This document shows positions 13,044 to 47,488 of a DNA stretch of 64,000 bases, piece after piece (the stretch's first letter is position 1; the number at the start of each line of letters is the position of its first letter). The notes below the pieces were generated by a model. That model was not told where the DNA came from. It searched no databases and worked only from the letters and a program-made list of their open reading frames with translations. The stretch comes from Bacteroidota bacterium (GTDB lineage: Bacteria; Bacteroidota; Bacteroidia; Bacteroidales; FEN-979), in contig JAPLDO010000078.1 of the NCBI GenBank assembly GCA_026391715.1, positions 60,214 through 124,213 of the forward strand, read 5' to 3'. The position numbers were made by a program, and so were the translations under genes.

Positions 13044-13070
13044 GGATGGATTAAGAAATTGATTATGTAA

Positions 13071-13252: not shown

Positions 13253-13307
13253 GAAATCTGAAATCTGAAATCTGAAATCTGAAATCTGAAATCTGAAATC
13301 TGAAATT
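13253..13307. repeat. Heptanucleotide tandem repeat (GAAATCT)x7 plus a partial copy
   Basis: Read directly: perfect units start at 13253, 13260, 13267, 13274, 13281, 13288 and 13295, then partial gaaatt. Intergenic, about 210-265 nt upstream of the STAND gene start. Confidence 0.95.
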
Positions 13308-13407
13308 ACCTTCCCTCCCAGAAATTCATATTGATCCCTTTTATTAGTGTGCTGATATTAAAACCGCGACAAAGTAGTTTGCGGTCGGGACGGGAGCGAT
13401 GACATTG

Positions 13408-14445: not shown

Positions 14446-14492
14446 AACTTCCAGTATTTAACTCCTGTGGAGTTGGTTATTTCACTATTTTG

Positions 14493-26611: not shown

Positions 26612-27523
26612 TCAGTTTGTTATACTAATTTTATTTTCCATGATAATTCTGTTGTCTTCTATCAACCTTAGCAGGTAAACTCCAATGGCTAAATTATCGC
26701 GCTCTAATTTTACCTCTTGACCAAATATGTGTTGTATTCTCTTAATTTCTTGGCCGAGAGAATTATAAACTTGCAAAGTCGCTTCTTTTAAATTCTTGTT
26801 TATTTTAATAATTGTGGATGTGGAAAATGGATTGGGGTAAACTGAGGTTCGAGTAGGTTCTTCAATATCATCAATTTTGGTTATCAGAGTACATGAATTG
26901 GTCGTATCATAATTCCATACGGTTTGATTATTCATTTTCACACACCATAAATTACTCCCAGATTCAAACGGAACAACCAATTGGGCAAAAGCTCCATAGG
27001 TACTGCCAATGCCTTCTATGATTGCAGCATAATTATTATACCAACCATTACTTAGCCAAAACCTTTTGTTATAATGGTTTCCAACAAGAACCGAGTCAAT
27101 TGAATCTACAAAATTGAATCCATTGATAACTGACGTAGGGAGGGTATCTCCCACATTTAGATTGAAATTATATGCCAGCGTATCCTGCCCATATTTAAAC
27201 AAATAGATTTTTTTATTAATAATGTCCTGTCTGAATGCGCCCCAGTATTCTCCAAAATAGTAGTACGGTGGAAAAGGTGGGGTGCAAAAACTCGACTTGT
27301 ATCCATTCTTATAGAGTTTATGATAGGTGTGACTACCAATAACAGTATCTCCTGAAATAAAAAGGTTGTGATCATCTGATATAAGGCAAGCGCCTCCGTC
27401 AATATACCAGGAGGATTGAAGCCAGACCGCATTCGAGTCCGGAAATGGGTGGTAAACATTTGTTTGCCCAAAGGAATTAGAAATTATCACTATGAAACTG
27501 GTAATGAGTAGAACTGTTTTCAT
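26612..27523 (-). CDS. T9SS-secreted hypothetical protein
   Basis: 303 aa. Signal MKTVLLITSFIVIISNSFGQ. C-terminal SVYPNPFSTSTIIKINK...GVYLLRLIEDNRIIMENKISITN matches the T9SS CTD pattern. Confidence 0.75.
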   Translation of the reverse strand: MKTVLLITSFIVIISNSFGQTNVYHPFPDSNAVWLQSSWYIDGGACLISDDHNLFISGDTVIGSHTYHKLYKNGYKSSFCTPPFPPYYYFGEYWGAFRQDIINKKIYLFKYGQDTLAYNFNLNVGDTLPTSVINGFNFVDSIDSVLVGNHYNKRFWLSNGWYNNYAAIIEGIGSTYGAFAQLVVPFESGSNLWCVKMNNQTVWNYDTTNSCTLITKIDDIEEPTRTSVYPNPFSTSTIIKINKNLKEATLQVYNSLGQEIKRIQHIFGQEVKLERDNLAIGVYLLRLIEDNRIIMENKISITN

Positions 27524-29339: not shown

Positions 29340-29510
29340 CCCCCAAAAGTGACCCCTCCCTAAATCCCTCCCCAAAAAGGGAGGGACTTTAGCTCCCCCT
29401 TTCCTTTTTGAGGAAAGTTGGGGAAATCTTTCTCCCCCTTCCCTTTTTGGGGAAGGGGGTCAGGGGGGATGGGGTCATTTGGGGAAGGGGGTCAGGGGGG
29501 ATGGGGTCAT
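29340..29510. repeat. Second copy of the G-rich element: three pyrimidine/purine hairpins plus 2 tandem 32-mers
   Basis: Hairpins: tccctccc-aaaaa-gggaggga (29365-29386), ctttcct-ttttg-aggaaag (about 29397-29417), ctcccccttccc-ttttt-ggggaaggggg (29432-29459). 32-mers TTGGGGAAGGGGGTCAGGGGGGATGGGGTCAT at 29447-29478 and 29479-29510. The element ends 5 nt from the stop codon at 29516-29518. Confidence 0.9.
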
Positions 29511-29515
29511 ATCTC

Positions 29516-31300: not shown

Positions 31301-31332
31301 AATATCTGGTTTTAGTTAAACTTTAGTCTTTG

Positions 31333-31340
31333 CAAATATA
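31333..31340 (-). promoter_or_regulatory. Candidate -7 promoter box (TATATTTG on minus strand)
   Basis: Plus-strand caaatata matches TAnnTTTG on the minus strand, 33 nt upstream of the ATG at 31300 and just downstream of the terminator hairpin of the giant gene. Confidence 0.4.
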
Positions 31341-31380
31341 AAACATGGCTGGTGTTAATCCTAATATTCTCAGTTAAAAC

Positions 31381-31430
31381 CTTAAAAGCCGAGAAGCTGC
31401 CCCGGCAAACCGGAACAGCTTCTCTTTTTT
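31381..31430 (-). terminator. Putative intrinsic (bidirectional) terminator after the giant gene
   Basis: 9-bp stem gagaagctg (31391-31399) / cagcttctc (31416-31424) with an inner ccgg-caaa-ccgg hairpin. T6 follows on plus; GGCTTTT follows on the minus-strand reading. About 55 nt downstream of the stop at 31483. Confidence 0.55.
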
Positions 31431-31482
31431 AATGATACCTTATTGTAACAGGTTAGCCGGAATGGCATCCTGTTCTTTAGGT

Positions 31483-34400
31483 TTATTCGCGTACAAGTTT
31501 ACTTACAATCATTTTCCTGATCACCTTATGCTGTTCATTCAGGAATACAACAGAATAGAGTCCGTCGGCAACATCATTCAGGTTGACTTGTGAATTGAAT
31601 TTACCGCCAATGGTTCTTGCATCATTCATCTCATAAACCATTACGCCAAGCTGGTTGTAAACCCTGATGGTGAAGATTTCTTCGGATGGCGTTGTAATTG
31701 CAACTCTGAAGTTTCCATTGTTCGGCACTGGATAAACGTTGAAACTGCTTCCAGGCAATTCATCCTGACCAACAAACAAAACATATACGTGATTTGAGGT
31801 ATCCGATGAACATCCGTTCACAGTAACTACTGACCAGTACCATCCGGTAATAGTGGCAGTATAGGTTTGATTGACAGCGCCTGGTAAAAGTCCTGTGCCT
31901 TCGTAGTACCATTGATTGCCGGTTGTTGCGCTACTGGTAAGAACAGCTCCGGCGGCAGTTACAACAGGCGCGGCGGGAATTGGATTAACAGTAACCGTGA
32001 AACTTGGCGATACTACTCCGCTTCCGCAGGAGTTGACGCCCTTTACAGTGATGACCACTGTCCCGGGATTGACGCTGAAATTAACTACGATACTGTTGGC
32101 GGTTCCCGTGAAGGTAGCTCCGGTTACCGTCCATAAATAGCTTGTGGCATTTGCAATAGCCGGCACAGTATAAGTTACTCCACTGCTGCCTGCGCAAACT
32201 GATGTTGGACCAGTGATGGTTCCAGCGGCTGCCGGCAATGGGTTAACAGTTACGGCAAAGGTTGAGGATGGTCCGGGACCGCACTGGTTCATTCCTTCAA
32301 CCTTAACAGCGCCCGAAGTAGCATTCGCCGGGAAGTTGACTGTAATACTTGTAGTTCCCTGACCCGTGAAAGTACCGCCTCCGGTTACTACCCAGTTGTA
32401 AGATGTAGCGCCAACTATTGGAGTTGTTGAATACACAACGCCATTTGTTCCTGCGCAAACAGTTGCAGTTCCTGTGATCGGATTTGCCGCGTTAGGCGGC
32501 GAGTTCACAAACACGGTATAAACCGTAGGTTGTGGCGCCGAGCATCCCGAAGCATTTGTATAGTTTACGGTGACAGTTTGAATGCCTGGTTGTGTCCAGG
32601 TTACAGTCAATACGCTTGTACCCTGTCCTGAAGAAATCGTTCCGTTTGAAACAGTCCATATATAACCAGTCATACCGCTTTCTGTGTAATAAACATTGTT
32701 GGTTGAGCCAATGCACGGGTTGTTTGTACTTCCGATTGTAGGAACAGGAGTTGGATTAACAGTTACATTGTAAGTAACCGGAGCAGAGCCGGGACAACCA
32801 CTTGTGTAGTTAACAGTTACAGCCTGATTACCTACTATATTCCAGGTTATTGTGATCGTATTGCTGGTTGTGCTGCCACCAGAAATAATGGTTCCTCCGG
32901 CAACAGTCCAGAGATAGTTGGTCATTCCTGTCTGAGTTGTATAGGTTGCTGTCGCTCCCTGACATACTGTAGCAGGACCGGTTATTGTCGGCGTAGGAAT
33001 GGCATTTACCGTCACATTGTAACAGGTAGGCGCCGCGGCAGTACATCCGTTGGTATTTGTGTAGTTTACACAAACTGTTTTTGCTCCGGCAGATGTCCAG
33101 GTTACAGTTATTGCATTGGTGGCTCCGCCTGAAGTGATGTTACCGCCGGCAGCTACAGTCCACGTATAACCGGTCATCCCGGCTTCAGTGGTGTAAACAT
33201 TAGACGTAGTACCCACACAAACCGATGAAGGACCAGTTATGGTTGGAACAGGTAATGGGTTTACAGTAACTGTTTTAGATGTAGGCGTTGAAGCTGAACA
33301 TCCGTTAGCGTTGGTATAATTCACAGTTATTGTTTGAACGCCAACTGTATTCCATGTAACAGTTATTGTGTTGGTTGTTACACCGGTGGCTGCACCTCCC
33401 GAAACAGTCCAGGAATAGCCTGTCATACCGGCTTCGGTTGTATATACATTGCCGGTTGAGTTAACACATGCCGACGCCGCTCCCGTAATGGTTGGAACTG
33501 GTAATGGGTTCACAGTTACGTTGTAGCATACAGGCGCTAAAGCAGTGCATCCGTTGGCGTTGGTATAATTCACACAAACTGTTTTCACTCCGATGGAATT
33601 CCATGTTATCGTAACGGCATTGGTTCCGACGCCTGCTGTAATAGCGCCTCCGGTCACCGTCCAGGTATAGCCTGTCATGCCTGCTTGTGTGGTATAAACG
33701 TTACCGGTTGAGTTCAGACAAACGATTGCCGGACCTGTAATTGTTGGAACAGGCAATGGATTCACAGTTACGTTGTAGCATACTGGCGTTGTGGCAGTAC
33801 ATCCGTTGGCGTTGGTATAATTAACGCAAACCGTTCCCACCCCAACTGTATTCCATGTTACGGTAATAGAATTGGTTACGGCGCCTGCTGTAATTGCGCC
33901 TCCGGTCACAGTCCAGGTATAGCCTGTCATTCCGGTTTGCGTTGTATAAACGTTACCGGTAGAGTTCAGACAAACGCTTGCCGGTCCTGTAATTGTAGGA
34001 ACAGGCAGCGGATTCACTGTTACATTGTAGCATACAGGCGTTGCAGCAGTACATCCGTTGGCGTTGGTATAATTAACGCAAACCGTTCCCACCCCTACTG
34101 TATTCCATGTTACGGTAATAGAATTGGTTAAGGAGCCTGCTGTAATTGCGCCTCCGGTCACTGTCCATGTATAACCTGTCATTCCGGTTTGCGTGGTATA
34201 AACGTTACCGGTTGAGTTCAGACAAACGCTTGCCGGACCTGTAATTGTAGGAACTGGCAGCGGATTCACGGTTACATTGTAGCAAACAGGCGTTGTTGCA
34301 GTACATCCGTTGGCGTTGGTATAATTAACGCAAACCGTTTTAGCCCCAACTGTATTCCATGTTACGGTTATAGCGTTGGTTCCGTTACCTGCTGTAATTA

Positions 34401-37400
34401 AACCTCCGGTCACCGTCCATGTATAGCCTGTCATGCCGGCTTGAGTGGTATAAACGTTACCTGTTGAGTTCAGACAAACGCTTGCCGGTCCTGTAATTGT
34501 TGGTACTGGCAACGGGTTTACAGTGATAATCACAAAGTTGGTTGGCAACGGACCGCCGCAGGTACCAGAGGCATTCTGCATCTGACGATAGTAAGTCGTA
34601 ACGGTCAGCGCTCCTGGTTGGTAGTTCAGCATTGTGGCTCCGCTAATGTTTGCAAAGCCCGAACTACTCAGCGAACTCTGCCATTGATAAGTCGGGGCGG
34701 TTCCGTTTGACGGGGCAACTCCATTGAGTAGAGCAGGAATAGCGCCGATGCAAATTGCCTGATCGGCGCTGATTGAGCCAACAGCAATAGTCGGGTTCAT
34801 AGTAATAGTCACTATATTGGTTGGCGCCGGACCTCCGCAAGCGCCAGATGCATTCTGCTGCTGACGGTAGTAAGTCGTAACAGTCAACGCTCCCGGTTGG
34901 TAGTTCAGCATTGTGGCTCCGCTAATGTTGTTAAAGCTCGAACCATCCAGCGAACTCTGCCATTGATAAGTCGGGGAGGTTCCGTTTGACGGAGCAACTC
35001 CATTGAGTAGCGCAGGTATAGCGCCGCTGCAAATTGCCTGACTGGCGCTGATTGAGCCAACAACAATAGTCGGATTCATAGAAATAGTTACCATGTTTGT
35101 TGGCAATGGACCTCCGCAAGTACCAGATGCATCCTGCATCTGACGGTAGTAAGTGGTAACGGTAAGCGCTCCCGGTTGATAGTTCAGCATTGTGGCTCCA
35201 CTAATGTTTGCAAAGGTCGAACCATTCAGCGAACTCTGCCATTGGTAAGTCGGGGCGGTTCCATTTGAAGGCGCAACTCCATTGAGTAGCGCAGGAATAG
35301 CGCCGCTGCAAATCGCCTGATTGGCGCTGATTGAGCCAACAACAATAGTCGGGTTCATAGTAATAGTCACAATGTTGGTTGCCAATGGACCTCCGCAAGT
35401 ACCAGATGCGTCCTGCATCTGACGGTAGTAAGTCGTAACGGTCAACGCTCCCGGTTGGTAGTTCAGCATTGTAGCTCCGCTAATGTTTGCAAAGCTCGAA
35501 CCATTCAGCGAACTCTGCCATTGGTAAGTCGGGGCTGTTCCATTTGAAGGCGCAACTCCATTGAGTAAAGCAGGAATAGAGCCGCTGCAAATCGCCTGAT
35601 CGGCGCTTATTGAGCCAACAGCGAGCGGCGGATTCACCGTGATCGTCACAACATTTGTTGAAAGCGGTCCTCCACAGGTTCCCTGAGCGTTCTGCATCTG
35701 TCTGTAATAGATAGTAGCAGCCAAAGCTCCCGGTTGATAATTCAGCGCGGTTGCCCCATTGATATCTGTGAAGCTAAAGTTATCAAGCGCACTCTGCCAC
35801 TGATAAGTTGGTAAAGTACCGTTTGATGGAGGCGTTCCTGTTAACAGCGCTGGAACATTTCCGATGCAAAGCGACTGATTTCCACTGATTGAACCAACAA
35901 TGAGCGCCGGGAAAGCGCCGACTGTGATGGTCACTGTATTAGTTGGAAGAGGTCCTCCGCAAGCGCCAGACGCATCCTGCATCAGACGGAAATAGGTTAT
36001 TGCAGTCAAAGAGCCAGGCTGATAATTGAGTGAAGTCGCGCCAATGATGTTGGTAAATGTAACATTATCGAGCGAGCTTTGCCATTGATAAACAGGCGAT
36101 GAACCGTTGGATGGTGGTACGCCGGTTAAAAGCGCTGGAATACTTCCATTGCAGATTGTTTGATCGGCGCTGATCGAGCCGACAGCCAACGTCGGGGTAA
36201 CGGTAACAGCAACCACATTGGTTGGCAGCGGACCGCCACAGACTCCGGTAGCATTCTGCATTAACCTGTAATATATGGTGTTCGTTAAAATTCCGGGCTG
36301 ATAATTCAGGTCAGTTGCCCCATTAATATCGGTAAATGTGAAATTGGTAAGTGAACTCTGCCACTGATACGTTGGTAATGTTCCGTTTGATGGCGGTACT
36401 CCAATGAGCAGGGCAGGCGCAAAACCACTACAAATCGTCTGATCAGCGCTGATTGAACCTACAACAAGCGCCTCTGAAACAGTAATGGTTACCACGTTGG
36501 TTGGAAGCGGACCGCCACACGTTCCCGATGCATTCTGCATCTGACGGAAATAGGTTGTAACGCTCAACAAGCCTGATTGATAATTCTGCGACGTCGCGCC
36601 AATAATGTTACTGAATGTAATATTATCCAGCGAACTCTGCCACTGATAGGTCGGCGCTGTTCCGTTTGCCGGAGGAGTAGCCGTTAGCAGGGCAGGTAGA
36701 GTATTGCTGCACACCGACTGGTCAGCGGCAATAGAACCAACAACCAAATCTGGGTTAACCGTGATCGTGACAACATTTGTTGGCAAAGGTCCGCCGCATG
36801 TGCCAGACGCATCCTGCATCTGACGGAAGTACATTGTTACGATTAATGCGCCTGGTTGGTAATTAAGACCTGTTTCTCCAGGGATATCCGTAAACGTGAT
36901 ATTGTCGGTTGAATTCTGCCACTGATAAGTTGGCAATGTTCCGTTTGCCGGGGCAACACCGTTAAGCTGTGCAGGTATTGAACCTGTGCAAACTGTCTGG
37001 TTTGCGCTGATTGATCCGACAACAAGTAGTGGATTCACCGTTATTGTAACAACATTGGTTGGCAATGGTCCGCTGCAAACTCCAGATGCATCCTGCATCT
37101 GACGGAAATAGGCGATGCCAGTCAACGCGCCGGGCTGATAATTGAGTAATGTTGCCCCGCTGATGTTCGTAAATGTGCTGTTATCCAGCGAACTCTGCCA
37201 CTGATATGTTGGTGATGTTCCATTTGAAGGACCAACTCCGGTAAGTTGCGCCGGAATCGTTCCCGTACAGATTGTCTGATTTGCAGAAATTGAGCCAACT
37301 ACAAGGTCGGGGCTCATAGAAATTGTCACTACATTGGTTGGCAAAGGACCGCCGCAAGTACCAGATGCATCCTGCATCTGACGGAAATAGGTTATAGCTG

Positions 37401-40400
37401 TAACCGCGCCGGGTTGATAATTGAGTGATGTAGCGCCAGCGATGTTACCGAAAGTGATGTTATCAAGTGAACTCTGCCATTGATACGTTGGCGATGTTCC
37501 ATTTGAAGGACCAACTCCGATGAGTTGCGCCGGAATCGTTCCTGCACAGACTGACTGATTTGCTGAAATAGAACCAACAACCAGGTCTGGGTTAACGGTG
37601 ATGACGACAACATTTGTTGGCAAAGGTCCGCCGCATACCCCAGACGCATTCTGCATCTGACGGAAGTACATTGTTACGATTAATGCGCCTGGTTGGTAAT
37701 TAAGACTTGTCTCGCCAGGGATATCCGTAAATGTGATATTGTCGGTTGAATTCTGCCACTGATAAGTTGGAGAGGTTCCGTTTGTCGGGGCAATACCGTT
37801 AAGCTGTGCAGGTATTGAACCTGTGCAAACTGCCTGGTTTGCGCTGATTGATCCGACTACAAGTAGAGGATTCACCGTTATTGTAACAACATTGGTTGGC
37901 AACGGACCGCCGCAAGCGCCAAACGCATTCTGCGTCTGTCTGAAATATGTGATACTTGTCAACGCGCCGGGCTGATAATTAAGTAATGTTGCCCCGCTGA
38001 TGTTCGTAAATGTACTGTTATCAAGTGAACTCTGCCACTGATATGTTGGGAATGTTCCATTTGAAGGACCAACTCCGGTAAGCTGCGCCGGAATCGCTCC
38101 CGCACAGATTGTCTGATTTGCAGAAATTGAGCCAACTACAAGGGCGGGGTTCATTGAAATTGTCACTACATTGGTTGTCAAAGGACCGCCACAAGCGCCA
38201 GACGCATTCTGAATCTGACGGAAATAGGTTATAGCAGTAACCGCGCCGGGCTGATAATTGAGTGACGTAGCGCCAATGATGTTAGTAAATGTGCTGTTAT
38301 CAAGCGAACTCTGCCATTGATATGTTGGCGACGTTCCAGTGGAAGGTGGAATACCGGTAAGTTGTGCCGGAATTGAACCGCTACAAATTGACTGGTTGGC
38401 TGCAATCGAACCAACTATCAATGCCGGATCAACGCCAACGGTGATTGTCACAACATTAGTTGGTAATGGACCGCCGCAAGTTCCGGATGCATCCTGCATC
38501 TGCCGGAAATAGGTAACGCCGGTTATAGAGCCAGGTTGATATGTTTGTACTGTCGCGCCAAAAATATTCGTAAATGTCACATTATCAAGTGAACTCTGCC
38601 ATTGATAGGTTTGCGAAGTTCCGTTGGCTGGCGGTATCGAGTTTAATAGCGCTGGTATTCCCCCGGAACAGATTGACTGGTTGGCGCTAACTGAACCTAC
38701 AACAAGCTGAGGAGTAATTGAAATTGTAACTACATTGGTTGGCAACGGACCGCCGCATGTGCCAGACGCATCCTGCGTCTGCCTGAAATAGGTGACGGCA
38801 GTCATAGCGCCAGGCTGGTAATTTAATGTTGTAGCGCCAGCGATGTTCGTAAATGTACTGTTATCAAGCGAACTTTGCCATTGGTAAGTAGGAGCGGTTC
38901 CATTTGAAGGTGGAATTCCGGTCAGTTGCGCCGGGATTGAACCGCTGCAAATTGACTGGTTTACGCCAATTGACCCGACAATAAGCAATGGATCAGCGTT
39001 AACCGTGATAGTTGCAACGTTTGTTGGCAGCGGACCGCCACAAGTACCTGATGCATCCTGCATCTGACGGTATTTGGTTGTCACCGTCAAAGCGCCGGGC
39101 TGGTATATCAGCGCAGTTGCGCCACCGATATTGGTATATGTAACATTATCAAGAGAACTCTGCCATTGATAAGTAGGAGAAGTTCCGTTAGAAGGTGGCA
39201 GGGCGTTGAGCGGCGAAGGTGTTTCTCCATTACAGATGTTCTGATCAGCGCTTGCTGAACCGACTACAAGCAGAGGCGTTATCGAAATTGTGATTACATT
39301 GGTTGGTAACGGACCGCCGCAAGCGCCAGACGCATCCTGCGTCTGCCTGAAATAGGTGGTGACAATCACCGCGCCGGGTTGATAATTGAGTGTAGTTGCG
39401 CCGGCGATATTTGTAAATGTGCTGTTATCAAGCGAACTCTGCCATTGATAAGTCGGCGAAGTTCCATTCGACGGGGCGACTGCGGTGAGTTGGGCGGGAA
39501 TAGCTCCTTCACAAATTATTTGGCTTGTTCCAATCGAGCCAACAATCAAATCAGGATTCATGGAAATGGTAACAACATTCGTTGGCAGCGGACCGCCGGA
39601 AGCGCCAGAGGCATTCTGCATCTGACGGAAATAGGTAATTACATTAACCGCGCCGGGCTGATAATTTAGTGAAGTCGCGCCCGTGATGTTAGTGAATGTG
39701 CTGTTATCGAGCGAACTTTGCCATTGATAAGTTGGAGCGGTTCCGTTGTAAGGACCAATTCCAACGAGTTGCGATGGAACCTGCCCCGCACAAATACTCT
39801 GGTTAGCGCTGATAGAGCCAACAAGCAGAGCCGGGTTTACCGTTATTGTAACAACGTTGGTAGGCAGCGGACCCGCACAAGTGCCAAGGGCATTCTGCAA
39901 CAGACGGAAGTAAGTTGTTGAAGTTAGCGCATCTGGTTGATAATTCAGGCTTATTGCGCCACTGATGTCAGTAAATGTGATATTATCCGTTGAAATTTGC
40001 CATTGGTAGCTTGGCGATGTTCCATTCAACGGGGCAATGCCGGTGAGCATAGCCGGTATCGAGCCTGAACCGATCGTCTGATTGGATCCAATGGAACCAA
40101 CTATCAGATCCGGGTTTATGGTAATGGTAACCGTGTTGGTTGGCAACGGGCCTAAGCAAGTTCCTGTGGCATTTTGCAATTGCCTGAAATATGTAGTGAA
40201 ACTAAGTAAATTCGGCTGATAATTCAACATGGTTGCGCCATTGATGTTAGCAAAGTTCAAATTGTCGAGAGAACTCTGCCACTGGTAAGTTGGAGCAGTT
40301 CCGTTTGCAGGCGCAACTCCATTGAGCTGCCCTGGTTTTGTTAACATACATATCGTCTGGTCAGCGGCAATTGAACCAACAATTAAATCAGGATTCAGAG

Positions 40401-43400
40401 AAATAGTCACAACATTTGTTGGCAACGGACCGCCGCAAGCGCCAGACGCGTCCTGCATCTGACGGAAATAGGTGACAGCAGTCACCGCGCCGGGCTGATA
40501 ATTCAGCGAAGTTGCGCCATTGATGTTAATAAAGGTAACATTATCAAGCGAACTCTGCCATTGGTAAGTAGGAGCAGTTCCGGTGGAAGGTGGAATTCCG
40601 GTCAGTTGCGCTGGAACAGAACCGCTACAAATTGACTGGTTTACGCCAATTGAACCGACAATCAGCAACGGATCAGCGTTAACGGTGATGGTTACAACGT
40701 TTGTTGGCAACGGACCGCCGCAAACGCCGGTTGCATTCTGCATCTGACGGTATTTGGTTGTCACCGTCAAAGCGCCTGGTTGGTAATTGAGTAAAGTGGC
40801 GCCTGCGACATTTGTAAATGTAATATTGTCGAGCGAACTCTGCCATTGATAAGTTGGCGATGTTCCATTCGACGGGGCTACTCCGATAAGCTGGGCTGGC
40901 AATGTTCCAGCACAAATTGTCTGATCGGCGCTGATGGAGCCAACAGCAAGCGCTGGATCAACCACAACAGTCGCGAATCCTTCGCCAAAATTCGAACATG
41001 AAGTTGCATCTGTTACAACAGTTACTGTATAAGTTTTAGTAGATGCAGGGCTGACGCTGAAAGTATATGGACTTGCAGTTATACCAATCACTGTTACCAG
41101 GGTTGTACCATCCCAATAGTTGATATCCCAGGGCTGAACGCCAGTAAGAGCAACGCTCAAAACTGCGGATGATCCACTACAAATTGTAGCGTCTCCACTC
41201 ATAATAGCTGTCGGTTTTGGTTTAACCGTTACAACGGCTGAGCCGGAGCCAACATTCGAACACGTAGTTGCATCGGATACCACCACAATTGTGTAGGTCA
41301 TTGTACTTTCCGGGTAAACAGTTATATTATATATTGGATCAGTGATTCCATATTTAGGGATTAAATCAACCCCATTGGAATATGTAAAATCCCAGGGCGG
41401 TGTGCCAGTGAAGGCAACGGTGAGAAGAGCGCCGAAATCTTTACAAATTACAGCGGATCCGCTAATCGTTGCAGTTGGCAAAGCATTTACGGTAATAGTT
41501 ACAACGTTTGTTGGCAACGGACCGCCGCAGGTACCGGAGGCATTCTGCATCTGACGAAAATAGGTGATAGCAGTTGCCGCGTCGGGCTGATAATTCAGCG
41601 ACGTTGCGCCGGCGATGTTGCTAAATGTGACATTATCCATCGAACTCTGCCATTGATAAGTCGGCGATGTTCCATTCGACGGGGCTACTCCGATGAGCTG
41701 GGCTGGCAATGTTCCAGCGCAAATTGTCTGATTGGGGCTGATTGAGCCGACAGCAAGATTCGGATCAACCACAACAGTTGCGCTGCCTTCGCCTAAATTC
41801 GGACATTTTGTATCCGTCACACTTGTAACTGTATAAGTCGTGGTGGATGTCGGGCTGACGCTGAAAGTATATGGACTTGCAGTTATTCCTGTCACTGTTA
41901 CCGGAGTTGTGCCATCTGAGTAGGTGATATCCCATGGCAACGCCCCGGTCAGGGCAACGCTCAGAACTGCTGATGACCCGGCACAAATTGTAGCGTCTCC
42001 ACTGATAATAGCTGTCGGTTTTTCATTAACCGTTACAACTGCTGAGCCGGAGCCAATATTCGAACATAAAGTTGCATCGGAAACATCGGTGACAGTGTAG
42101 GTCATTGAACTTAGCGGCCAAACATTTAAATTATATAATGGATCTGTGACGCCATAAAGGGTGATAAGATTAACGCCATCGGAATATGTAAAATCCCACG
42201 GCGCAACGCCCGTTAAGGCAACAGTGAGAGGAGCTCCGAAACCTTTGCAAATTACAGCGGATCCGCTAATCGTTGCAGTCGGCAAAGCATTTACGGTAAT
42301 AGTTACAACATTTGTTGGCAAAGGACCGCCGCAAACGCCGGTTGCATTCTGCATCTGACGGAAATAGGTGACGCCGGTCAAAGCGCCTGGCTGATAATTG
42401 AGCGCTGTCGAGCCTGCGATGTTGCTAAATGTGATGTTATCAAGCGAACTCTGCCATTGATAAGTCGGCGATGTTCCATTCGATGGGGCTACTCCGATGA
42501 GCTGGCCTGGCAATGTTCCCTCACAAATTGTCTGATCGGCGCTGATTGAGCCTACAGCAAGCGTTGGATCAACCACAACAGTCGCGCTGCCTTCGCCTAA
42601 ATTCGGACAATTTGCATCCGTCACACTTGTAACCGTATAAGTTGTTGCGGCTGTCGGGCTGACGCTGAAAGTATATGGACTTGCAGTTATTCCCGTTACG
42701 GTTACCGGAGTTGTGCCATCTGTGTAGGTGATACCCCATGGCAACGTACCGGTCAGAGCGACACTCAAAACTGTAGATAATCCGGCACAAATTGTCGCGT
42801 CTCCACTTATAGTCGCTGTCGGTCTTTCATTAACCGTTACAACGGCTGAACCGGCGCCAACATTCGAACACATAGTCGCATCAGAAACATCGGTGACAGT
42901 GTAGGTCATTGAACTTAGCGGCCAAACATTTAAATTATATGATGGATCTGTGACTCCATAAAGGGTGATAAGATTAACGCCATCGGAATATGTAAAATCC
43001 CACGGTGCAACGCCCGTTAAAGCAACAGTGAGAGGAGCGCCGAAACCTTTGCAAATTACAGCGGATCCGCTAATCGTTGCCGTCGGCAAAGCATTTACGG
43101 TAATAGTTACAACGTTTGTTGGCAGCGGACCGCCGCAAGTTCCGGTTGCATCCTGCATCTGACGGAAATAAGTAACGCCGGTCGCAACGCCGGGCGAATA
43201 ATTGAGTGAAGTGGCGCCTGCGATGTTTCCAAATGTAATGTTATCGAGCGAACTCTGCCATTGATAAGATGGCGATGTTCCATTCGACGGGGCTACTCCG
43301 ATGAGCTGCCCTGGCAATGTTCCCGCACAAATTGTCTGATCGGCAGAAATAGACCCAACAATCAATTCCGGATCAACGCTAACGGATATTGTAACTATAT

Positions 43401-46400
43401 TTGTTGGCAACGGTCCGCCGCAAGTACCAGAGGCATTCTGCATCTGACGGAAATAGTTGATGCCGGTCAAACCGCCTGGTTGATAATTAAGTGTAGTTGC
43501 GCCGGTTATGTTCGTAAATGTAATGTTGTCAAGCGAACTCTGCCATTGATAAGTTGGCGATGTTCCATTCGACGGGGCGACTCCGATGAGCTGGCCTGGC
43601 AATGTGCCAGCACAAATTGTCTGATCGGCGCTGATTGAGCCGACAGCAAGATTCGGATCAACCACAACAGTTGCGCTGCCTTCGCCTAAATTCGGGCATT
43701 TGGTATCTACAACGCTTGTCACCGTATAGGTGGCGGTTGAAGTCGGGCTGACGCTGAAAGTATATGGACTTGCAGTTATTCCTGTCACTGTCACCGGAGT
43801 TGTACCATCTGTGTAGGTGATATCCCATGGCAACGCCCCGGTCAGGGCAACGCTCAGAACTGCTGATGACCCGGCACAAATTGTAGCGTCGCCACTGATA
43901 ATAGCTGTTGGTTTTGGATTTACCGTTACAACGGCTGAGCCTGTGCCAACATTCGAACATAAAGTTGCATCGGAAACTACTGTAACTGTGTATGTCAATG
44001 AACTGTCAAGCGGTAGGACGCTAAAATTATATGGATTTTCATTGATTCCTGTAACGGGGTAAAACATAACGCCATCGTAAAGCGTGAAATTCCACGGCGC
44101 AGAGCCAGTGAAAGCAATGCTTAAAGGACTTCCAAATCCTTTACAAATTGTAGCGGTTCCACTTATCGTTGCTGTTGGCAAAGCATTTACCGTAATAGTT
44201 ACAACGTTTGTTGGCAACGGACCGCCGCAAACGCCGGTTGCATTCTGCATCTGACGGAAATAGGTGACGCCGGTCACACCGGCGGGTTGATAATTGAGTG
44301 AAGTGGCGCCGGCGATGTTGCTAAATGTGATGTTGTCAAGCGAACTCTGCCATTGATAAGTCGGCGATGTTCCATTCCACGGAGCTACTCCGATGAGCGG
44401 ATCTGGCAACGTTCCCATACAAATTGTCTGATCGGCGCTAATTGAGCCAGCCTCAAGAGCCTGGTCAACCACAACGGTTGCGCTGCCTTCGCCTAAATTC
44501 GGACATTTTGTATCCACCACGCTTGTCACAGTATAAGTAACGGTTGACGTCGGGCTGACGCTGAAAGTATATGGGCTGACAGTTATACCAGATACTGTTA
44601 CCGGAGTTGTACCATCGCTATAGGTAATTTCCCACGGTTGCGCGCCTGTAAGAGCGACACTCAAAACTGCCGATGATCCATTACAAATTGTAGCGTCTCC
44701 ACTGATAATTGCTGTCGGCTTTTCATTAACCGTTACAACGGCTGAGCCGGAGCCAACATTCGAACATAAAGTTGCATCGGAAACTACTGTCACTGTGTAT
44801 GTCAATGAACCGTCAAGCGGTAAGACGCTAAAATTATATGGATTTTCAAGATTACCTGTGACGGGGTAAAACATTACGCCATCGTAAACTGTGAAATTCC
44901 ACGGCGCAGTACCGGTAAAAGCGATGCTCAGAGGAGCTCCAAATCCTTTACAAATTGTAGTAGTTCCACTAATTGTTGCAGTCGGTAAAGGATCTACCGT
45001 AATCGCAACCACATTGGTCGCTTTCGGTCCATCACATGTACCTGATGCATTCTGCAACTGACGGAAATAAGTTGTAACGGTCAGAAAGCCTGGCTGATAA
45101 TTCAGCAAAGTTGCGCCGGCGATGTTACCGAAGGTAATATTATCAGGCGAACTCTGCCATTGATATGTCGGCTCTGATCCGCTTGCCGGGGCAACTCCGT
45201 TGAGTTGCACAGGAATTGTTCCCGCACAAATGGTCTGATTGTCGCTTATCGAACCAACGGCAAGCAGCGGATTTACGGAAACTACAACACTATCGCTTTT
45301 GAAACAACCTGTAGCGGTAATAGTTTCAACGACGATAAATTTTGTTGTCGCCAGTGGCGCTACTATTGGATTTGCTTGTGTTGAAGTAAATCCTGCCGGG
45401 TTAGAAATCCAACTGTAAGTATTTCCGGCTACCGGCTCAGATCCAATTTGTGTACTTTCTCCAAGACAGATAGCGCGGTTTGCGCCTGCAACTGCGGCAG
45501 GTAATGGATTAACCGTTACAACAGCGCTGCCAAAAATAAAACCTGGGCAGATGGTGGCGTCTATTACACTGGTAACTGTATATGTCGTCGTAATTTCAGG
45601 GCTAACATTTAAAGTGTATGGCGAATGTGTTATGCCACCCACTGTTATCGTGGTAGTTCCATTGGTTATATCAATAGTCCAGGGTTGAGAACCTGTAAGA
45701 TCAACAATCAACGTGGACTCCGAACCATCACAAATTGTATTATCGCCGCTTATTGTAGCCGTAGGTCTTGGAATCACCGTAATCACAGCCGCGCCGGCGC
45801 CAACATTCGAACACAAATTTGCATCGGAAACTACTGGGATTGTATAGGTCAATGAACTGTCGAGGGGTAAGACTATAGTATTATATGGATTTTCAATGAT
45901 TCCTGTGACGGGGTAGAACATCACGCCATCGTAAAGCGTGAAATTCCACGGCGCAGCGCCGGTGAAAGCAATGCTGATAGGAGCGCCAAATCCTTTGCAA
46001 ATTGAAGCGGAGCCGCTTATCGTTGCAGTGGGTAAAGGATTTACAGTAATTGTCACTACGTTGGTTGGTTTAGGTCCATCACAAATTCCAGATGCATTCT
46101 GCATTTGCCGGAAATAGGTAGTGACAATCACACTTCCGGGCAGATAATTGAGTGAAGTTGCGCCGGCGATATTGTTAAATGTGATGTTATCGAGCGAACT
46201 CTGCCATTGATACGTAGGCGATGTTCCATTTGTTGGCGCAACACCGTTGAGTTGCACAGGTAAGGTACCGGTACAAAAGGACTGATCGGCGCTAATCGAA
46301 CCTACAATAAGATTTGGCATTACAGTAATGGTTACGACGTTTGTTGGCAGCGGCCCCCCACAAGTACTACTGGCGTTCTGTTGCAATCTGAACCAGGTAG

Positions 46401-47247
46401 TTGTTGTAAGCGCCTCAGGCTGATAATTCAGCAATGTTGCGCCGCTGATGTTGGCGAAGGCAATATTGTCAACCGAACTCTGCCATTGGAAAGTATGGTT
46501 GGTTCCATTAGTTGGAGGCGTTCCAGTTAGTGGATTGGGAACCATTCCTGTGCATACCGACTGGTTTTCACTAATCGCCCCTACCAGCAGAGCGGGTAAA
46601 ATTGTAAGTGTAATTACATTTGTGTAATGCGGTCCATAACATGTTCCCGGATCATTCTGTATTTGCCTGAAATAATAAGTCAGGCTGTCAACTGATGTGT
46701 ACTGCGGGTTGGGCTGATAATTCTGATTTGTCGCTCCTGAAAGGTTAAAAAAGATAGACCCGGTTAAGGATAATTGCCATTGATAGGTTGGTGAAGTTCC
46801 TGTGGAAGGAGGAATGGCATGAAGCAGCCCCGGTAGAACGCCAGAGCAAACCGACTGATTGGGATAAATGGAACCTCCAACAAGGGCAGGCTTGATAGTG
46901 ATGGTAACCACATTCGTGGGTAGCGGACCACCTGTTGTTCCCTCGGCATTCTGCATTTGACGGTAATAGGTAGTAGTTGAAAGTACACCCGGTTGATAAG
47001 TAATTACTGTTGCGCCGACAATATCGGTAAACATGAAATTGTCGAGCGAACTTTGCCACTGGAAGGTTGGATTGGTTCCGTTTGCAGGACCAATACCAAC
47101 AAGCGGCGCCGGCGAAATGCCCGAACATATTGCCTGGTTAGCGCTGATGGAACCTACAATCAAAGGATCCTGAGCAAAGCCGCAGAGGCTGCCAAAGCTG
47201 ATTAAAAACACAATCAGCATTCTTACGAAAGTGTAGTTGTTTTTCAT
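31483..47247 (-). CDS. Giant (5,254-aa) modular T9SS-secreted surface protein built from Cys-containing Ig/PKD-like repeats
   Basis: Single uninterrupted 15.8-kb ORF. Signal MKNNYTFVRMLIVFLISFGSLCGFAQ. About 33 A modules (~90-93 aa, ..VGSISA.Q.IC.G..P..L.G..P.NGT.PTYQWQSS.DN.TF..I.GAT.LNYQPG....TYFRQMQ.ASG.CGGPLPTN). 12 B modules (~88 aa, LPTATISG...IC.G....L...TG..PW...Y.DG). 1 unique D module. 10 C modules (~84 aa, LPVPTITGP..VC.NSTGNVYTT..GMTGYTWTV.GG.I..G...N.ITVTW...G...V.VNYTN.NGC). T9SS CTD at the C-terminus. Confidence 0.9.
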   Translation of the reverse strand: MKNNYTFVRMLIVFLISFGSLCGFAQDPLIVGSISANQAICSGISPAPLVGIGPANGTNPTFQWQSSLDNFMFTDIVGATVITYQPGVLSTTTYYRQMQNAEGTTGGPLPTNVVTITIKPALVGGSIYPNQSVCSGVLPGLLHAIPPSTGTSPTYQWQLSLTGSIFFNLSGATNQNYQPNPQYTSVDSLTYYFRQIQNDPGTCYGPHYTNVITLTILPALLVGAISENQSVCTGMVPNPLTGTPPTNGTNHTFQWQSSVDNIAFANISGATLLNYQPEALTTTTWFRLQQNASSTCGGPLPTNVVTITVMPNLIVGSISADQSFCTGTLPVQLNGVAPTNGTSPTYQWQSSLDNITFNNIAGATSLNYLPGSVIVTTYFRQMQNASGICDGPKPTNVVTITVNPLPTATISGSASICKGFGAPISIAFTGAAPWNFTLYDGVMFYPVTGIIENPYNTIVLPLDSSLTYTIPVVSDANLCSNVGAGAAVITVIPRPTATISGDNTICDGSESTLIVDLTGSQPWTIDITNGTTTITVGGITHSPYTLNVSPEITTTYTVTSVIDATICPGFIFGSAVVTVNPLPAAVAGANRAICLGESTQIGSEPVAGNTYSWISNPAGFTSTQANPIVAPLATTKFIVVETITATGCFKSDSVVVSVNPLLAVGSISDNQTICAGTIPVQLNGVAPASGSEPTYQWQSSPDNITFGNIAGATLLNYQPGFLTVTTYFRQLQNASGTCDGPKATNVVAITVDPLPTATISGTTTICKGFGAPLSIAFTGTAPWNFTVYDGVMFYPVTGNLENPYNFSVLPLDGSLTYTVTVVSDATLCSNVGSGSAVVTVNEKPTAIISGDATICNGSSAVLSVALTGAQPWEITYSDGTTPVTVSGITVSPYTFSVSPTSTVTYTVTSVVDTKCPNLGEGSATVVVDQALEAGSISADQTICMGTLPDPLIGVAPWNGTSPTYQWQSSLDNITFSNIAGATSLNYQPAGVTGVTYFRQMQNATGVCGGPLPTNVVTITVNALPTATISGTATICKGFGSPLSIAFTGSAPWNFTLYDGVMFYPVTGINENPYNFSVLPLDSSLTYTVTVVSDATLCSNVGTGSAVVTVNPKPTAIISGDATICAGSSAVLSVALTGALPWDITYTDGTTPVTVTGITASPYTFSVSPTSTATYTVTSVVDTKCPNLGEGSATVVVDPNLAVGSISADQTICAGTLPGQLIGVAPSNGTSPTYQWQSSLDNITFTNITGATTLNYQPGGLTGINYFRQMQNASGTCGGPLPTNIVTISVSVDPELIVGSISADQTICAGTLPGQLIGVAPSNGTSPSYQWQSSLDNITFGNIAGATSLNYSPGVATGVTYFRQMQDATGTCGGPLPTNVVTITVNALPTATISGSAVICKGFGAPLTVALTGVAPWDFTYSDGVNLITLYGVTDPSYNLNVWPLSSMTYTVTDVSDATMCSNVGAGSAVVTVNERPTATISGDATICAGLSTVLSVALTGTLPWGITYTDGTTPVTVTGITASPYTFSVSPTAATTYTVTSVTDANCPNLGEGSATVVVDPTLAVGSISADQTICEGTLPGQLIGVAPSNGTSPTYQWQSSLDNITFSNIAGSTALNYQPGALTGVTYFRQMQNATGVCGGPLPTNVVTITVNALPTATISGSAVICKGFGAPLTVALTGVAPWDFTYSDGVNLITLYGVTDPLYNLNVWPLSSMTYTVTDVSDATLCSNIGSGSAVVTVNEKPTAIISGDATICAGSSAVLSVALTGALPWDITYSDGTTPVTVTGITASPYTFSVSPTSTTTYTVTSVTDTKCPNLGEGSATVVVDPNLAVGSISPNQTICAGTLPAQLIGVAPSNGTSPTYQWQSSMDNVTFSNIAGATSLNYQPDAATAITYFRQMQNASGTCGGPLPTNVVTITVNALPTATISGSAVICKDFGALLTVAFTGTPPWDFTYSNGVDLIPKYGITDPIYNITVYPESTMTYTIVVVSDATTCSNVGSGSAVVTVKPKPTAIMSGDATICSGSSAVLSVALTGVQPWDINYWDGTTLVTVIGITASPYTFSVSPASTKTYTVTVVTDATSCSNFGEGFATVVVDPALAVGSISADQTICAGTLPAQLIGVAPSNGTSPTYQWQSSLDNITFTNVAGATLLNYQPGALTVTTKYRQMQNATGVCGGPLPTNVVTITVNADPLLIVGSIGVNQSICSGSVPAQLTGIPPSTGTAPTYQWQSSLDNVTFININGATSLNYQPGAVTAVTYFRQMQDASGACGGPLPTNVVTISLNPDLIVGSIAADQTICMLTKPGQLNGVAPANGTAPTYQWQSSLDNLNFANINGATMLNYQPNLLSFTTYFRQLQNATGTCLGPLPTNTVTITINPDLIVGSIGSNQTIGSGSIPAMLTGIAPLNGTSPSYQWQISTDNITFTDISGAISLNYQPDALTSTTYFRLLQNALGTCAGPLPTNVVTITVNPALLVGSISANQSICAGQVPSQLVGIGPYNGTAPTYQWQSSLDNSTFTNITGATSLNYQPGAVNVITYFRQMQNASGASGGPLPTNVVTISMNPDLIVGSIGTSQIICEGAIPAQLTAVAPSNGTSPTYQWQSSLDNSTFTNIAGATTLNYQPGAVIVTTYFRQTQDASGACGGPLPTNVITISITPLLVVGSASADQNICNGETPSPLNALPPSNGTSPTYQWQSSLDNVTYTNIGGATALIYQPGALTVTTKYRQMQDASGTCGGPLPTNVATITVNADPLLIVGSIGVNQSICSGSIPAQLTGIPPSNGTAPTYQWQSSLDNSTFTNIAGATTLNYQPGAMTAVTYFRQTQDASGTCGGPLPTNVVTISITPQLVVGSVSANQSICSGGIPALLNSIPPANGTSQTYQWQSSLDNVTFTNIFGATVQTYQPGSITGVTYFRQMQDASGTCGGPLPTNVVTITVGVDPALIVGSIAANQSICSGSIPAQLTGIPPSTGTSPTYQWQSSLDNSTFTNIIGATSLNYQPGAVTAITYFRQIQNASGACGGPLTTNVVTISMNPALVVGSISANQTICAGAIPAQLTGVGPSNGTFPTYQWQSSLDNSTFTNISGATLLNYQPGALTSITYFRQTQNAFGACGGPLPTNVVTITVNPLLVVGSISANQAVCTGSIPAQLNGIAPTNGTSPTYQWQNSTDNITFTDIPGETSLNYQPGALIVTMYFRQMQNASGVCGGPLPTNVVVITVNPDLVVGSISANQSVCAGTIPAQLIGVGPSNGTSPTYQWQSSLDNITFGNIAGATSLNYQPGAVTAITYFRQMQDASGTCGGPLPTNVVTISMSPDLVVGSISANQTICTGTIPAQLTGVGPSNGTSPTYQWQSSLDNSTFTNISGATLLNYQPGALTGIAYFRQMQDASGVCSGPLPTNVVTITVNPLLVVGSISANQTVCTGSIPAQLNGVAPANGTLPTYQWQNSTDNITFTDIPGETGLNYQPGALIVTMYFRQMQDASGTCGGPLPTNVVTITVNPDLVVGSIAADQSVCSNTLPALLTATPPANGTAPTYQWQSSLDNITFSNIIGATSQNYQSGLLSVTTYFRQMQNASGTCGGPLPTNVVTITVSEALVVGSISADQTICSGFAPALLIGVPPSNGTLPTYQWQSSLTNFTFTDINGATDLNYQPGILTNTIYYRLMQNATGVCGGPLPTNVVAVTVTPTLAVGSISADQTICNGSIPALLTGVPPSNGSSPVYQWQSSLDNVTFTNIIGATSLNYQPGSLTAITYFRLMQDASGACGGPLPTNTVTITVGAFPALIVGSISGNQSLCIGNVPALLTGTPPSNGTLPTYQWQSALDNFSFTDINGATALNYQPGALAATIYYRQMQNAQGTCGGPLSTNVVTITVNPPLAVGSISADQAICSGSIPALLNGVAPSNGTAPTYQWQSSLNGSSFANISGATMLNYQPGALTVTTYYRQMQDASGTCGGPLATNIVTITMNPTIVVGSISANQAICSGAIPALLNGVAPSNGTAPTYQWQSSLNGSTFANISGATMLNYQPGALTVTTYYRQMQDASGTCGGPLPTNMVTISMNPTIVVGSISASQAICSGAIPALLNGVAPSNGTSPTYQWQSSLDGSSFNNISGATMLNYQPGALTVTTYYRQQQNASGACGGPAPTNIVTITMNPTIAVGSISADQAICIGAIPALLNGVAPSNGTAPTYQWQSSLSSSGFANISGATMLNYQPGALTVTTYYRQMQNASGTCGGPLPTNFVIITVNPLPVPTITGPASVCLNSTGNVYTTQAGMTGYTWTVTGGLITAGNGTNAITVTWNTVGAKTVCVNYTNANGCTATTPVCYNVTVNPLPVPTITGPASVCLNSTGNVYTTQTGMTGYTWTVTGGAITAGSLTNSITVTWNTVGVGTVCVNYTNANGCTAATPVCYNVTVNPLPVPTITGPASVCLNSTGNVYTTQTGMTGYTWTVTGGAITAGAVTNSITVTWNTVGVGTVCVNYTNANGCTATTPVCYNVTVNPLPVPTITGPAIVCLNSTGNVYTTQAGMTGYTWTVTGGAITAGVGTNAVTITWNSIGVKTVCVNYTNANGCTALAPVCYNVTVNPLPVPTITGAASACVNSTGNVYTTEAGMTGYSWTVSGGAATGVTTNTITVTWNTVGVQTITVNYTNANGCSASTPTSKTVTVNPLPVPTITGPSSVCVGTTSNVYTTEAGMTGYTWTVAAGGNITSGGATNAITVTWTSAGAKTVCVNYTNTNGCTAAAPTCYNVTVNAIPTPTITGPATVCQGATATYTTQTGMTNYLWTVAGGTIISGGSTTSNTITITWNIVGNQAVTVNYTSGCPGSAPVTYNVTVNPTPVPTIGSTNNPCIGSTNNVYYTESGMTGYIWTVSNGTISSGQGTSVLTVTWTQPGIQTVTVNYTNASGCSAPQPTVYTVFVNSPPNAANPITGTATVCAGTNGVVYSTTPIVGATSYNWVVTGGGTFTGQGTTSITVNFPANATSGAVKVEGMNQCGPGPSSTFAVTVNPLPAAAGTITGPTSVCAGSSGVTYTVPAIANATSYLWTVTGATFTGTANSIVVNFSVNPGTVVITVKGVNSCGSGVVSPSFTVTVNPIPAAPVVTAAGAVLTSSATTGNQWYYEGTGLLPGAVNQTYTATITGWYWSVVTVNGCSSDTSNHVYVLFVGQDELPGSSFNVYPVPNNGNFRVAITTPSEEIFTIRVYNQLGVMVYEMNDARTIGGKFNSQVNLNDVADGLYSVVFLNEQHKVIRKMIVSKLVRE
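31486..31752 (-). other. T9SS type A C-terminal sorting domain of the giant protein
   Basis: The last 89 aa are GSSFNVYPVPNNGNFRVAITTPSEEIFTIRVYNQLGVMVYEMN...GLYSVVFLNEQHKVIRKMIVSKLVRE. This is the same pattern as the four neighbouring cargo proteins. Confidence 0.8.
31981..34512 (-). repeat. Ten tandem C-type modules (about 252-nt period; first four near-identical)
   Basis: Boundaries are mapped from codons: L of the first LPVPTITG at 34512-34510, and the final ...FTVTVNP Pro codon at 31983-31981. C1-C4 differ at only a few residues. Confidence 0.85.
34513..40953 (-). repeat. Uninterrupted run of 23 A-type modules (270-282-nt period)
   Basis: 6,441 nt over 23 modules gives about 93 aa each. 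The YQWQ motif was counted 23 times in this span. The last four modules (34.5-35.6 kb) are near-identical with a 270-nt period, visible as paralogous shadow ORFs at 34931 and 35201. Confidence 0.85.
40954..45267 (-). repeat. [A-B-B'] supermodule region (804-nt period in the best-conserved copies)
   Basis: Order is A5-B-B', A6-B-B', A7, A8-B-B', A9-B-B', A10-B-B'. Near-identical plus-strand shadow ORFs start at 42161 and 42965, exactly 804 nt apart, with a related one at 41342. Confidence 0.85.
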
Positions 47248-47488
47248 TGATTTGAATTTATCATTTATATTGAAATAAAATAATTAATAGCCATTTGGAA
47301 ACTCCGGATTGCTATAAAACCAAATATTCCAAAACTGTTCCTGTTTGAAATAGTACGGAGACATTTCAATAGAAATCAGTATGGATATAGTTGGTAATAA
47401 CGACTGGGCAAAAATACAATAAAAATACTATTATTTATATATGCTGCGGATAAAATGAATTTTTCAGGGAAATCCGAGACCGGGAAAT

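Follow-up and report, generated by a model that had tools for sequence, protein, structure and literature searches.

We analysed a 64,000-nt stretch of a Bacteroidota metagenome-assembled genome (MAG), comprising positions 60,214 to 124,213 of contig JAPLDO010000078.1 (hereafter the window), with a focus on one very large gene at 31483..47247 on the minus strand. The product of this gene, referred to here as the giant protein, was found to combine a Sec-type signal peptide, 57 tandem modules and a type A C-terminal sorting domain (CTD) of a type IX secretion system (T9SS). By analogy with known proteins of this design, we consider it likely that the giant protein is a T9SS-exported fibrillar surface protein, most probably an adhesin or a spacer that contacts surfaces, particles or other cells. 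It belongs to the broad class of SprB, RemA/RemZ and GhpA, of which it is a large but ordinary member. Every part of it is of a known kind, proteins made from the same building blocks are abundant, and the giant protein opens no new question by itself.

Module architecture of the giant protein

The open reading frame (ORF) listing gave the gene an ATG start and a length of 5,254 aa. Its translation contains one stop codon, at the terminus, and its DNA contains no N. Composition analysis of the mature protein yielded a mass of ~535 kDa, a pI of about 4 and a charged-residue content of 5%. Its accession is probably MCX6278052, as judged from the numbering between the flanking entries MCX6278048 and MCX6278053. 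An earlier note on this DNA had described an ORF of this length with an ordered module architecture. The ORF list, the translation and the module map all bear this out, with the correction that the gene lies on the minus strand.

In order to map the modules, A modules were placed by their [YF]QWQ anchors and all other modules by conserved start motifs. The resulting order is signal peptide, A×4, B-B', D, [A-B-B']×2, A, [A-B-B']×3, A×23, C×10, linker and CTD, which corresponds to 33 A, 6 B, 6 B', 1 D and 10 C modules and, with the linker domain, to 57 tandem modules. The joints between modules are 0-2 residues long. The [A-B-B'] supermodules that had been described earlier are present, but their series is broken by one extra A module (aa 1197-1289). 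All parts are encoded on the minus strand, as follows.

47173..47247 (-), aa 1-25: Sec/signal peptidase I signal peptide, MKNNYTFVRMLIVFLISFGSLCGFA, followed by QDP; recognised by eye from a basic N-region, a hydrophobic core and G-F-A preceding the cleavage site
46042..47172 (-), aa 26-402: four A modules, the most divergent A copies, the second with a 5-aa insertion; placed by anchors and alignment
45505..46035 (-), aa 405-581: first B-B' pair (B, 405-494; B', 495-581); placed by start motifs and alignment
45274..45504 (-), aa 582-658: single D module, Pfam Ig_7 (PF19081, 31.7 bits against a cut-off of 27.3)
40960..45273 (-), aa 659-2096: interleaved region of [A-B-B']×2, the extra A and [A-B-B']×3; from the module map
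34519..40959 (-), aa 2097-4243: 23 consecutive 93-aa A modules; placed by anchors and Tandem Repeats Finder
31984..34518 (-), aa 4244-5088: ten C modules, PKD_6 (PF19408)
31735..31983 (-), aa 5089-5171: linker domain of ~83 aa with one Cys and weak Ig_7-like similarity (E = 0.055, below threshold)
31486..31734 (-), aa ~5172-5254: T9SS type A C-terminal sorting domain of ~83 aa (PF18962, TIGR04183)

At the DNA level, Tandem Repeats Finder reported a 279-nt period with 22.2 copies (70% matches) and a 252-nt period with 4.4 copies (87% matches).

Both ends of the protein carry export signals. The predicted mature N-terminus is a Gln, in agreement with the Q-rule for Bacteroidetes (PMC5837995). 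A lipoprotein signal was considered and rejected, the lipobox before Cys22 being absent. At the opposite end, residues 84-161 of the 167-residue tail matched PF18962 (Por_Secre_tail) with 42.4 bits against a cut-off of 27, and the NCBIfam type A model TIGR04183 was matched with 25.3 bits against a cut-off of 23. The type B models fared differently, with CHU_C reaching 20.8 bits, below its cut-off of 27, and TIGR04131 giving no match to the tail. The identification of the protein as T9SS cargo, made earlier without database searches, was thus upheld by C-terminal 83 aa that score above the curated cut-offs of both type A families and by a visible Sec-type signal at the N-terminus. Furthermore, the four next genes downstream, on the same strand, each end in a type A CTD (TIGR04183) as well, which suggests that the organism uses a T9SS.

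The modules between these signals, leaving aside A, could largely be tied to described families. The C array corresponds to PKD_6, with 10 matching stretches totalling 291.4 bits, and a single C module scored 49.8 bits against a cut-off of 25. These modules had been described as keeping three to four Cys each; the actual counts are two or four (4,4,4,4,2,4,2,2,2,2). Likewise, the linker measures about 83 aa in place of the ~76 aa given before. B' alone matched Ig-like_POM152 (PF24312) barely above threshold (27.8 bits against a cut-off of 27; 141.8 bits when summed over the giant protein), and B alone gave a weak Ig_7 match only (16.1 bits). By hhalign, B and B' form one family (probability 99.8), and on these profile scores the B/B' family sits at the edge of Ig-like_POM152 and Ig_7. 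An AlphaFold2 model of the B-B' pair, with a predicted local distance difference test (pLDDT) score of 96.7, consists of two seven-stranded sandwiches. The best two-domain Foldseek matches of this model were a GhpA stem fragment (9flu_A; TMq 0.64, 22% identity), titin tandem Ig domains and the yeast Pom152 Ig repeat, the last of these (5tvz) with a TMt of 0.71. At the sequence level, a B' profile gave no significant match among PDB sequences, POM152 included (E = 0.47).

Two sequence motifs related to glycosylation deviated from expectation. The Bacteroidota O-glycosylation motif D-[ST]-[AILVMT] is depleted in the giant protein, with 2 sites against 15.3 ± 3.7 in shuffled sequences. N-x-S/T sequons are enriched (139 against 87 ± 8), most of them falling on NGT, NIT and NAS positions that are conserved in the A modules.

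The A module as a widespread Ig-like repeat

With 33 copies of a 93-aa unit, the A module makes up 3,069 of the 5,254 residues (58%). Its signature is Y-Q-W-Q...G-A-T...Y-x-P...Y-F-R together with a Cys pair. What the earlier note had termed an invariant core holds as a consensus, but just 17 of the 93 columns are strictly invariant, with 25 more conserved at 90% or above. Similarly, the two conserved Cys ascribed to every A module were found in 30 of the 33 copies. Both Cys are present in 87.5% of 2,195 full-length A-type domains taken from other proteins. The collection of A-type domains assembled here numbers 3,518.

No Pfam-A or NCBIfam model was assigned to any of the 33 copies. When the A modules were scanned singly against Pfam at E <= 10, the outcome was limited to three weak K319L-like_PKD matches (best E = 0.012), and an NCBIfam scan of A returned spurious sub-threshold matches only. 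Ig_7, the family of the D module, matched none of the 33 copies singly at E <= 10; in the Pfam scan of the whole protein, a summed sub-threshold Ig_7 score of 23.6 bits (cut-off, 27.3 bits) falls on A module 30. Comparisons by hhalign with B, B' and C were not significant (probabilities of 5.7%, 11.4% and 0.2%, respectively), so that A cannot be tied by sequence to these other modules of the giant protein. Scans of single modules, which the earlier note had proposed as a check, therefore left A unmatched, but placed C, D and the tail in known families. Its suggestion of poorly described domain families accordingly applies to A and not to the remaining modules.

A and Ig_7 do have in common an N-terminal Cys-x-Gly and, ahead of the last strand, a C-terminal Cys, although A has its own signature and no single A reaches the Ig_7 model. 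In three homologous proteins (P0123, P0057 and P0152), modules found with the A profile coincide with significant Ig_7 stretches, and for this reason the sequences suggest that A is a divergent and very common branch of Ig_7-type Ig-like domains that lies beyond the reach of current Pfam models. Three further homologues (P0203, P0092 and P0048) contain A arrays without a genuine Pfam domain match.

An AlphaFold2 model of one A module, built with 52 sequences, was an Ig-like sandwich with a pLDDT of 95.5 and a predicted template modelling (TM) score of 0.86. A Foldseek search of the PDB with this model retrieved only generic Ig-like sandwiches with weak E values (best 2e-3) and TM scores of 0.55-0.74, amongst them phage capsid decoration domains, Ig C2 domains and GhpA fragments. 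Structure prediction and Foldseek, likewise proposed beforehand, thus gave Ig-like beta-sandwiches for both A and B-B'. Together with the PKD_6 assignment of C, the Ig_7 assignment of D and the marginal Ig-like_POM152 match of B', these models agree with the earlier description of the protein as a chain of Ig/PKD-like beads.

To determine how widespread A is, a profile of the 33 copies was searched against 1.84 billion cluster representatives. This search yielded 10,462 representatives at E <= 0.001, of which 1,446 were matched at E <= 1e-30. Giants are frequent amongst these proteins, and the highest copy number seen was 67, in a protein of 7,174 aa (P0032). Named carriers belong to Hymenobacter, Filimonas, Chitinophaga, Flavobacterium, Plebeiibacterium and Saccharicrinis, all Bacteroidota, and bear generic names, e.g., 'gliding motility-associated C-terminal domain-containing protein', 'T9SS type A/B sorting domain-containing protein' or 'Ig-like domain-containing protein'. 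The tails of nine giant A-rich proteins were checked, with eight being CHU_C and one Por_Secre_tail. Source names were found on three of ten giants that were looked up, namely those of Filimonas and Hymenobacter, which are cultured and whose proteins are called 'gliding motility-associated C-terminal domain-containing protein', and one JGI entry called 'gliding motility-associated-like protein'. One carrier much like the giant protein (P0044; 6,810 aa) has 35 A modules, 8 C modules and a type A CTD. Searches for homologous proteins were less productive. With the A profile they returned short fragments only, and with the 1,196-aa N-terminus all listed proteins were of ~2,100 aa or less, the full-length giant protein being unlisted.

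The A repeat is thus present in more than 10,000 protein clusters across Bacteroidota, including the characterised T9SS substrate RemZ. That the dominant repeat of the giant protein has no Pfam or NCBIfam model despite this abundance constitutes a curatorial gap. Defining A as a family, or widening Ig_7, would annotate much dark sequence in giant surface proteins.

Known relatives and a proposed route to the cell surface

When the A profile was searched against the sequences of solved structures, one match was obtained (PDB 8gl6_D, E = 5.7e-21), with copies at 513-584, 610-697 and 804-877. This chain is labelled 'RemA' in the PDB, but is actually RemZ (Fjoh_0803), a RemA homologue (PMC10994853). 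Only the CTD of RemZ is resolved in that structure (PMC10994853), and the A fold is therefore without an experimental structure. RemA and RemZ of Flavobacterium johnsoniae resemble the giant protein in their type A CTD, which is handled by SprA and PorV (PMC10994853), and in the A-type modules of RemZ. RemZ differs in its size of 1,436 aa, with just three A-type modules. The defining features of the RemA family, moreover, are a lectin domain and motion across the cell surface, whereas no lectin family of the SUEL/Gal_Lectin type was among the Pfam matches of the giant protein.

Likeness to SprB and other 'gliding motility-associated' giants lies in the multi-thousand-residue size, the tandem Ig-like repeats and export by the T9SS. 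A-type modules also occur in such giants, with 22 in a Filimonas lacunae protein (WP_144264206.1; 6,707 aa) and 26 in one from Hymenobacter montanus (WP_191004062.1; 4,596 aa). SprB-type proteins, however, have a type B (CHU_C/TIGR04131) CTD and use PorP/SprF-type shuttles, in contrast to the type A CTD found here. The comparison with SprB was made through family models, and the Pfam scan detected SprB repeats (PF13573) in neither half of the giant protein. Downstream of the giant gene there is no PorP/SprF-like shuttle gene, the neighbours showing only Por_Secre_tail/TIGR04183 and GH13.

These comparisons bear on whether the giant protein might be a mobile gliding-motility adhesin like SprB or RemA, which is loaded on a track and propelled over the surface. 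Many proteins entered at source as 'gliding motility-associated C-terminal domain-containing protein' contain A-type modules, and RemA itself is an adhesin with a type A CTD (PMC12618676). Nevertheless, the CTD of the giant protein is of type A, whereas cargo is sent to the gliding track by a type B signal, and F. johnsoniae SprB fitted with the RemA type A CTD is surface-exposed yet immobile (PMC12618676). Given also the lack of SprB repeats, of a lectin domain and of a sprF/PorP-like neighbour, we regard a gliding role as unlikely and favour a fibrillar surface protein that is not propelled. The SprB passenger, at 6,497 aa, can nonetheless be taken through the T9SS by a type A CTD (PMC12618676). 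The giant protein is one more example of the SprB/RemA/GhpA class, and it shows that a type A CTD can sit on a cargo of more than 5,000 residues.

Fibrillar adhesins as described by Monzon et al. 2021 (PMC8286594) likewise consist of a long single polypeptide with a tandem-repeat stalk and a recognised anchor, and Por_Secre_tail is counted among their anchor domains (PMC8286594). They differ from the giant protein in that no known adhesive domain was identified here, so that the likeness extends to 'stalk plus anchor' only.

A further relationship was to GhpA of Aureispira sp. CCB-QB1, a heptamer-forming protein of 5,898 aa in which a 25-aa signal peptide precedes an N-terminal hook, a stem of 52 Ig-like repeats and a T9SS sorting domain, and whose gene is followed by PorP/PorE-like genes (ghpB/C) (10.1101/2024.01.29.577165). 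By phmmer, the C-terminal 1,105 residues of the giant protein matched GhpA (9flp_A) in eight stretches with E = 4e-53, the best of which aligns the C array colinearly with GhpA 1168-1866. The first 2,500 aa matched nothing among PDB sequences, and apart from the C array no part of the giant protein matches a solved chain by phmmer.

Such a relationship raises the question of whether the giant protein could be a grappling hook like GhpA, several copies of which line up laterally to form a rigid, multistranded appendage for catching other cells, as in ixotrophy-type predation. In addition to the homology of the C array, the two proteins share an overall design, i.e., a signal peptide, Ig-like repeats, a T9SS sorting domain and a length of more than 5,000 aa. 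At the level of fold, the B-B' model fits the GhpA stem best as a two-domain unit (9flu_A, as given above, and also 9fly_A and 9flv_A), and GhpA fragments recur in the Foldseek list of the A model. Yet the giant protein lacks an N-terminal hook or adhesin-like domain, a module of ~1,400 aa in GhpA, and instead has A modules from residue 26. Its A and B profiles miss GhpA by sequence, it has no type B tail, its downstream neighbours are type A CTD cargo and not PorP/PorE-like genes, and its PKD_6 array adjoins the CTD whereas that of GhpA lies towards the N-terminus. A grappling hook is therefore very unlikely.

Packing of the A arrays can also be considered apart from GhpA. In this proposal, A would be an unnamed abundant Ig-like family, mainly of T9SS-type cargo, with a role beyond spacing, and its arrays, packed side by side, would form a previously unseen multistranded appendage anchored by a type A CTD. 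If so, the giant protein would build a rigid multistranded structure as the sequence-unrelated GhpA stem does. We consider this improbable.

For the favoured reading, that of a fibrillar surface protein, the following route can be proposed. Sec would carry the giant protein across the inner membrane, with cleavage after Ala25 leaving an N-terminal Gln (PMC5837995). The modules would then fold in the periplasm, probably with one disulfide per module; for the A module, the conserved Cys pair makes such a disulfide plausible. Recognition of the CTD would take place in the SprA/Sov translocon with participation of the PorV shuttle (PMC10994853), and the PorU sortase would remove it, after which the new C-terminus would be linked to anionic lipopolysaccharide (PMC9143113) or released. 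Type A CTDs are associated with either release or anchoring, the fate being set by the particular CTD (PMC12618676). A chain anchored at its C-terminus would form a rod or fibre of ~200 nm or more, at ~4 nm per Ig domain, both this length and the rigidity being estimates. Anchored in this way, the chain would have its PKD_6 array close to the cell, with the four most divergent A modules at the distal N-terminal tip. These divergent modules are a candidate for the adhesive part.

Besides the approximate nature of the rod dimensions, several points weigh against this proposal. None of the T9SS core genes (SprA/Sov, PorV, PorU, PorK-N) lies within the 64-kb window, and the Pfam and NCBIfam scans detected no adhesive, lectin or enzymatic domain in the giant protein. 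We infer the adhesin function from class analogy only, and secretion, CTD cleavage and surface anchoring from the T9SS literature. The protein could also be shed, as type A CTDs allow release. With regard to the disulfides, A modules 1, 14 and 15 have a single Cys, and a test for joint loss of the two Cys in the 2,195 homologous domains revealed no coupling (Fisher p = 0.21). Finally, the two other assemblies that cover this locus both break inside the gene, such that its two ends are corroborated and the A×23 middle has no independent support, and the number of A copies in that run could be wrong in a sequence taken from a MAG.

Assembly support, repeat history and genomic setting

Nucleotide identity among the A modules averages 67% and peaks at 93%, and exact repeats in the gene reach at most 78 nt. 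Because the copies are old and have diverged to this extent, the giant gene is not a collapsed repeat. A genome scan identified one true ortholog (locus L002), along with three distant relatives (L003 to L005) that have no A or B modules. The ortholog fragment (P0041), from contig JBAXRP010000108.1 of MAG ELA586, is 91% identical to aa 1-1493 of the giant protein in a gapless colinear alignment and has the same module order up to aa 1493. Its upstream genes are the same as those in the window, i.e., SufB, SufC, SufD, CNNM and DUF2142. At the other end of the gene, a Logan contig from SRR20698650 is 100% identical over 29481-33673, which includes the last 729 codons.

An error in repeat number or order, especially in the 23 A copies, must be weighed within an otherwise real gene. 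The sequence comes from a MAG contig of 228,691 nt, other assemblies break within the gene (the Logan contig 729 codons before its end, that of the ortholog at aa 1493), and an in-register mis-join between repeats would leave the frame open. On the other hand, repeats as diverged as these provide unique paths for ordinary read lengths, the gene has no N, frameshifts or internal stops, and both of its ends agree with independent assemblies. Arrays of similar or larger size are, moreover, found in complete genomes of cultured species. A mis-assembly of this kind is accordingly a rather small possibility.

Some A copies are markedly closer to each other than the average. Modules 21 and 22 share 90% and 93% nucleotide identity with modules 24 and 25, respectively, at a shift of three modules (36757-38151), and modules 30-33 share 87-91% with their neighbours (34519-35634). 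These near-identities within the run mark recent segmental duplications, from which it can be deduced that the array grew by block duplication.

One of the distant relatives, L003 (JADJOU010000010.1, a 'tig'-named MAG contig), contains PKD_6-type C modules and two large overlapping ORFs (5480-10594 and 10536-15362). Together they resemble a single gene of ~3,300 aa disrupted by a frameshift, for which a long-read error is possible.

The gene upstream of the giant gene (47489-49816, minus strand) encodes a predicted DUF2142 membrane protein of 775 aa and is separated from it by 241 nt. This adjacency is kept in MAG ELA586 (L002, 6247-8574). Because of this upstream gap and a strong terminator-like hairpin downstream, the giant gene looks monocistronic, i.e., like a transcription unit of its own. 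The signals concerned are the following.

47409..47416 (-): candidate Bacteroidota -7 promoter motif TATTTTTG (TAnnTTTG), ~160 nt upstream of the ATG
31391..31424 (-): intrinsic-terminator-like hairpin, a 15 bp stem followed by GGCUUUU, ~60 nt past the stop codon

TAnnTTTG is not enriched across the window (44 found against 56 expected), and TATTTTTG is for this reason consistent with a promoter without being evidence for one. A consensus promoter/terminator scan returned nothing near the 3' end of the giant gene; the hairpin came to light on inspection and folding of the sequence. Its predicted RNA fold has a dG of -27.9 kcal/mol (z = -5.76), and 0 of 200 shuffled sequences folded as well. 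An operon with the downstream cargo genes was considered and rejected, with a 182-nt gap and the hairpin lying between.

The four genes downstream encode the type A CTD proteins mentioned above; by their domain matches, they and the giant gene make up a predicted five-gene T9SS cargo island.

29516-31300 (-): type A CTD cargo gene, 594 aa; no other Pfam/NCBIfam match
27778-29280 (-): type A CTD cargo gene, 500 aa; no other Pfam/NCBIfam match
26612-27523 (-): type A CTD cargo gene, 303 aa; no other Pfam/NCBIfam match
22727-26539 (-): type A CTD cargo gene, 1,270 aa; GH13 alpha-amylase-family enzyme by Pfam/NCBIfam

The remainder of the window is ordinary chromosome, with the Suf system, UvrC, an RND efflux pump and a TonB-dependent receptor. 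It also includes a gene at 9954-13139 (minus strand) for a protein of 1,061 aa with an N-terminal nSTAND1 NTPase (PF20703, E = 7.6e-89) and a C-terminal WD40 beta-propeller, an architecture that, from its domain content, is of the STAND-type signalling or defence-like kind.

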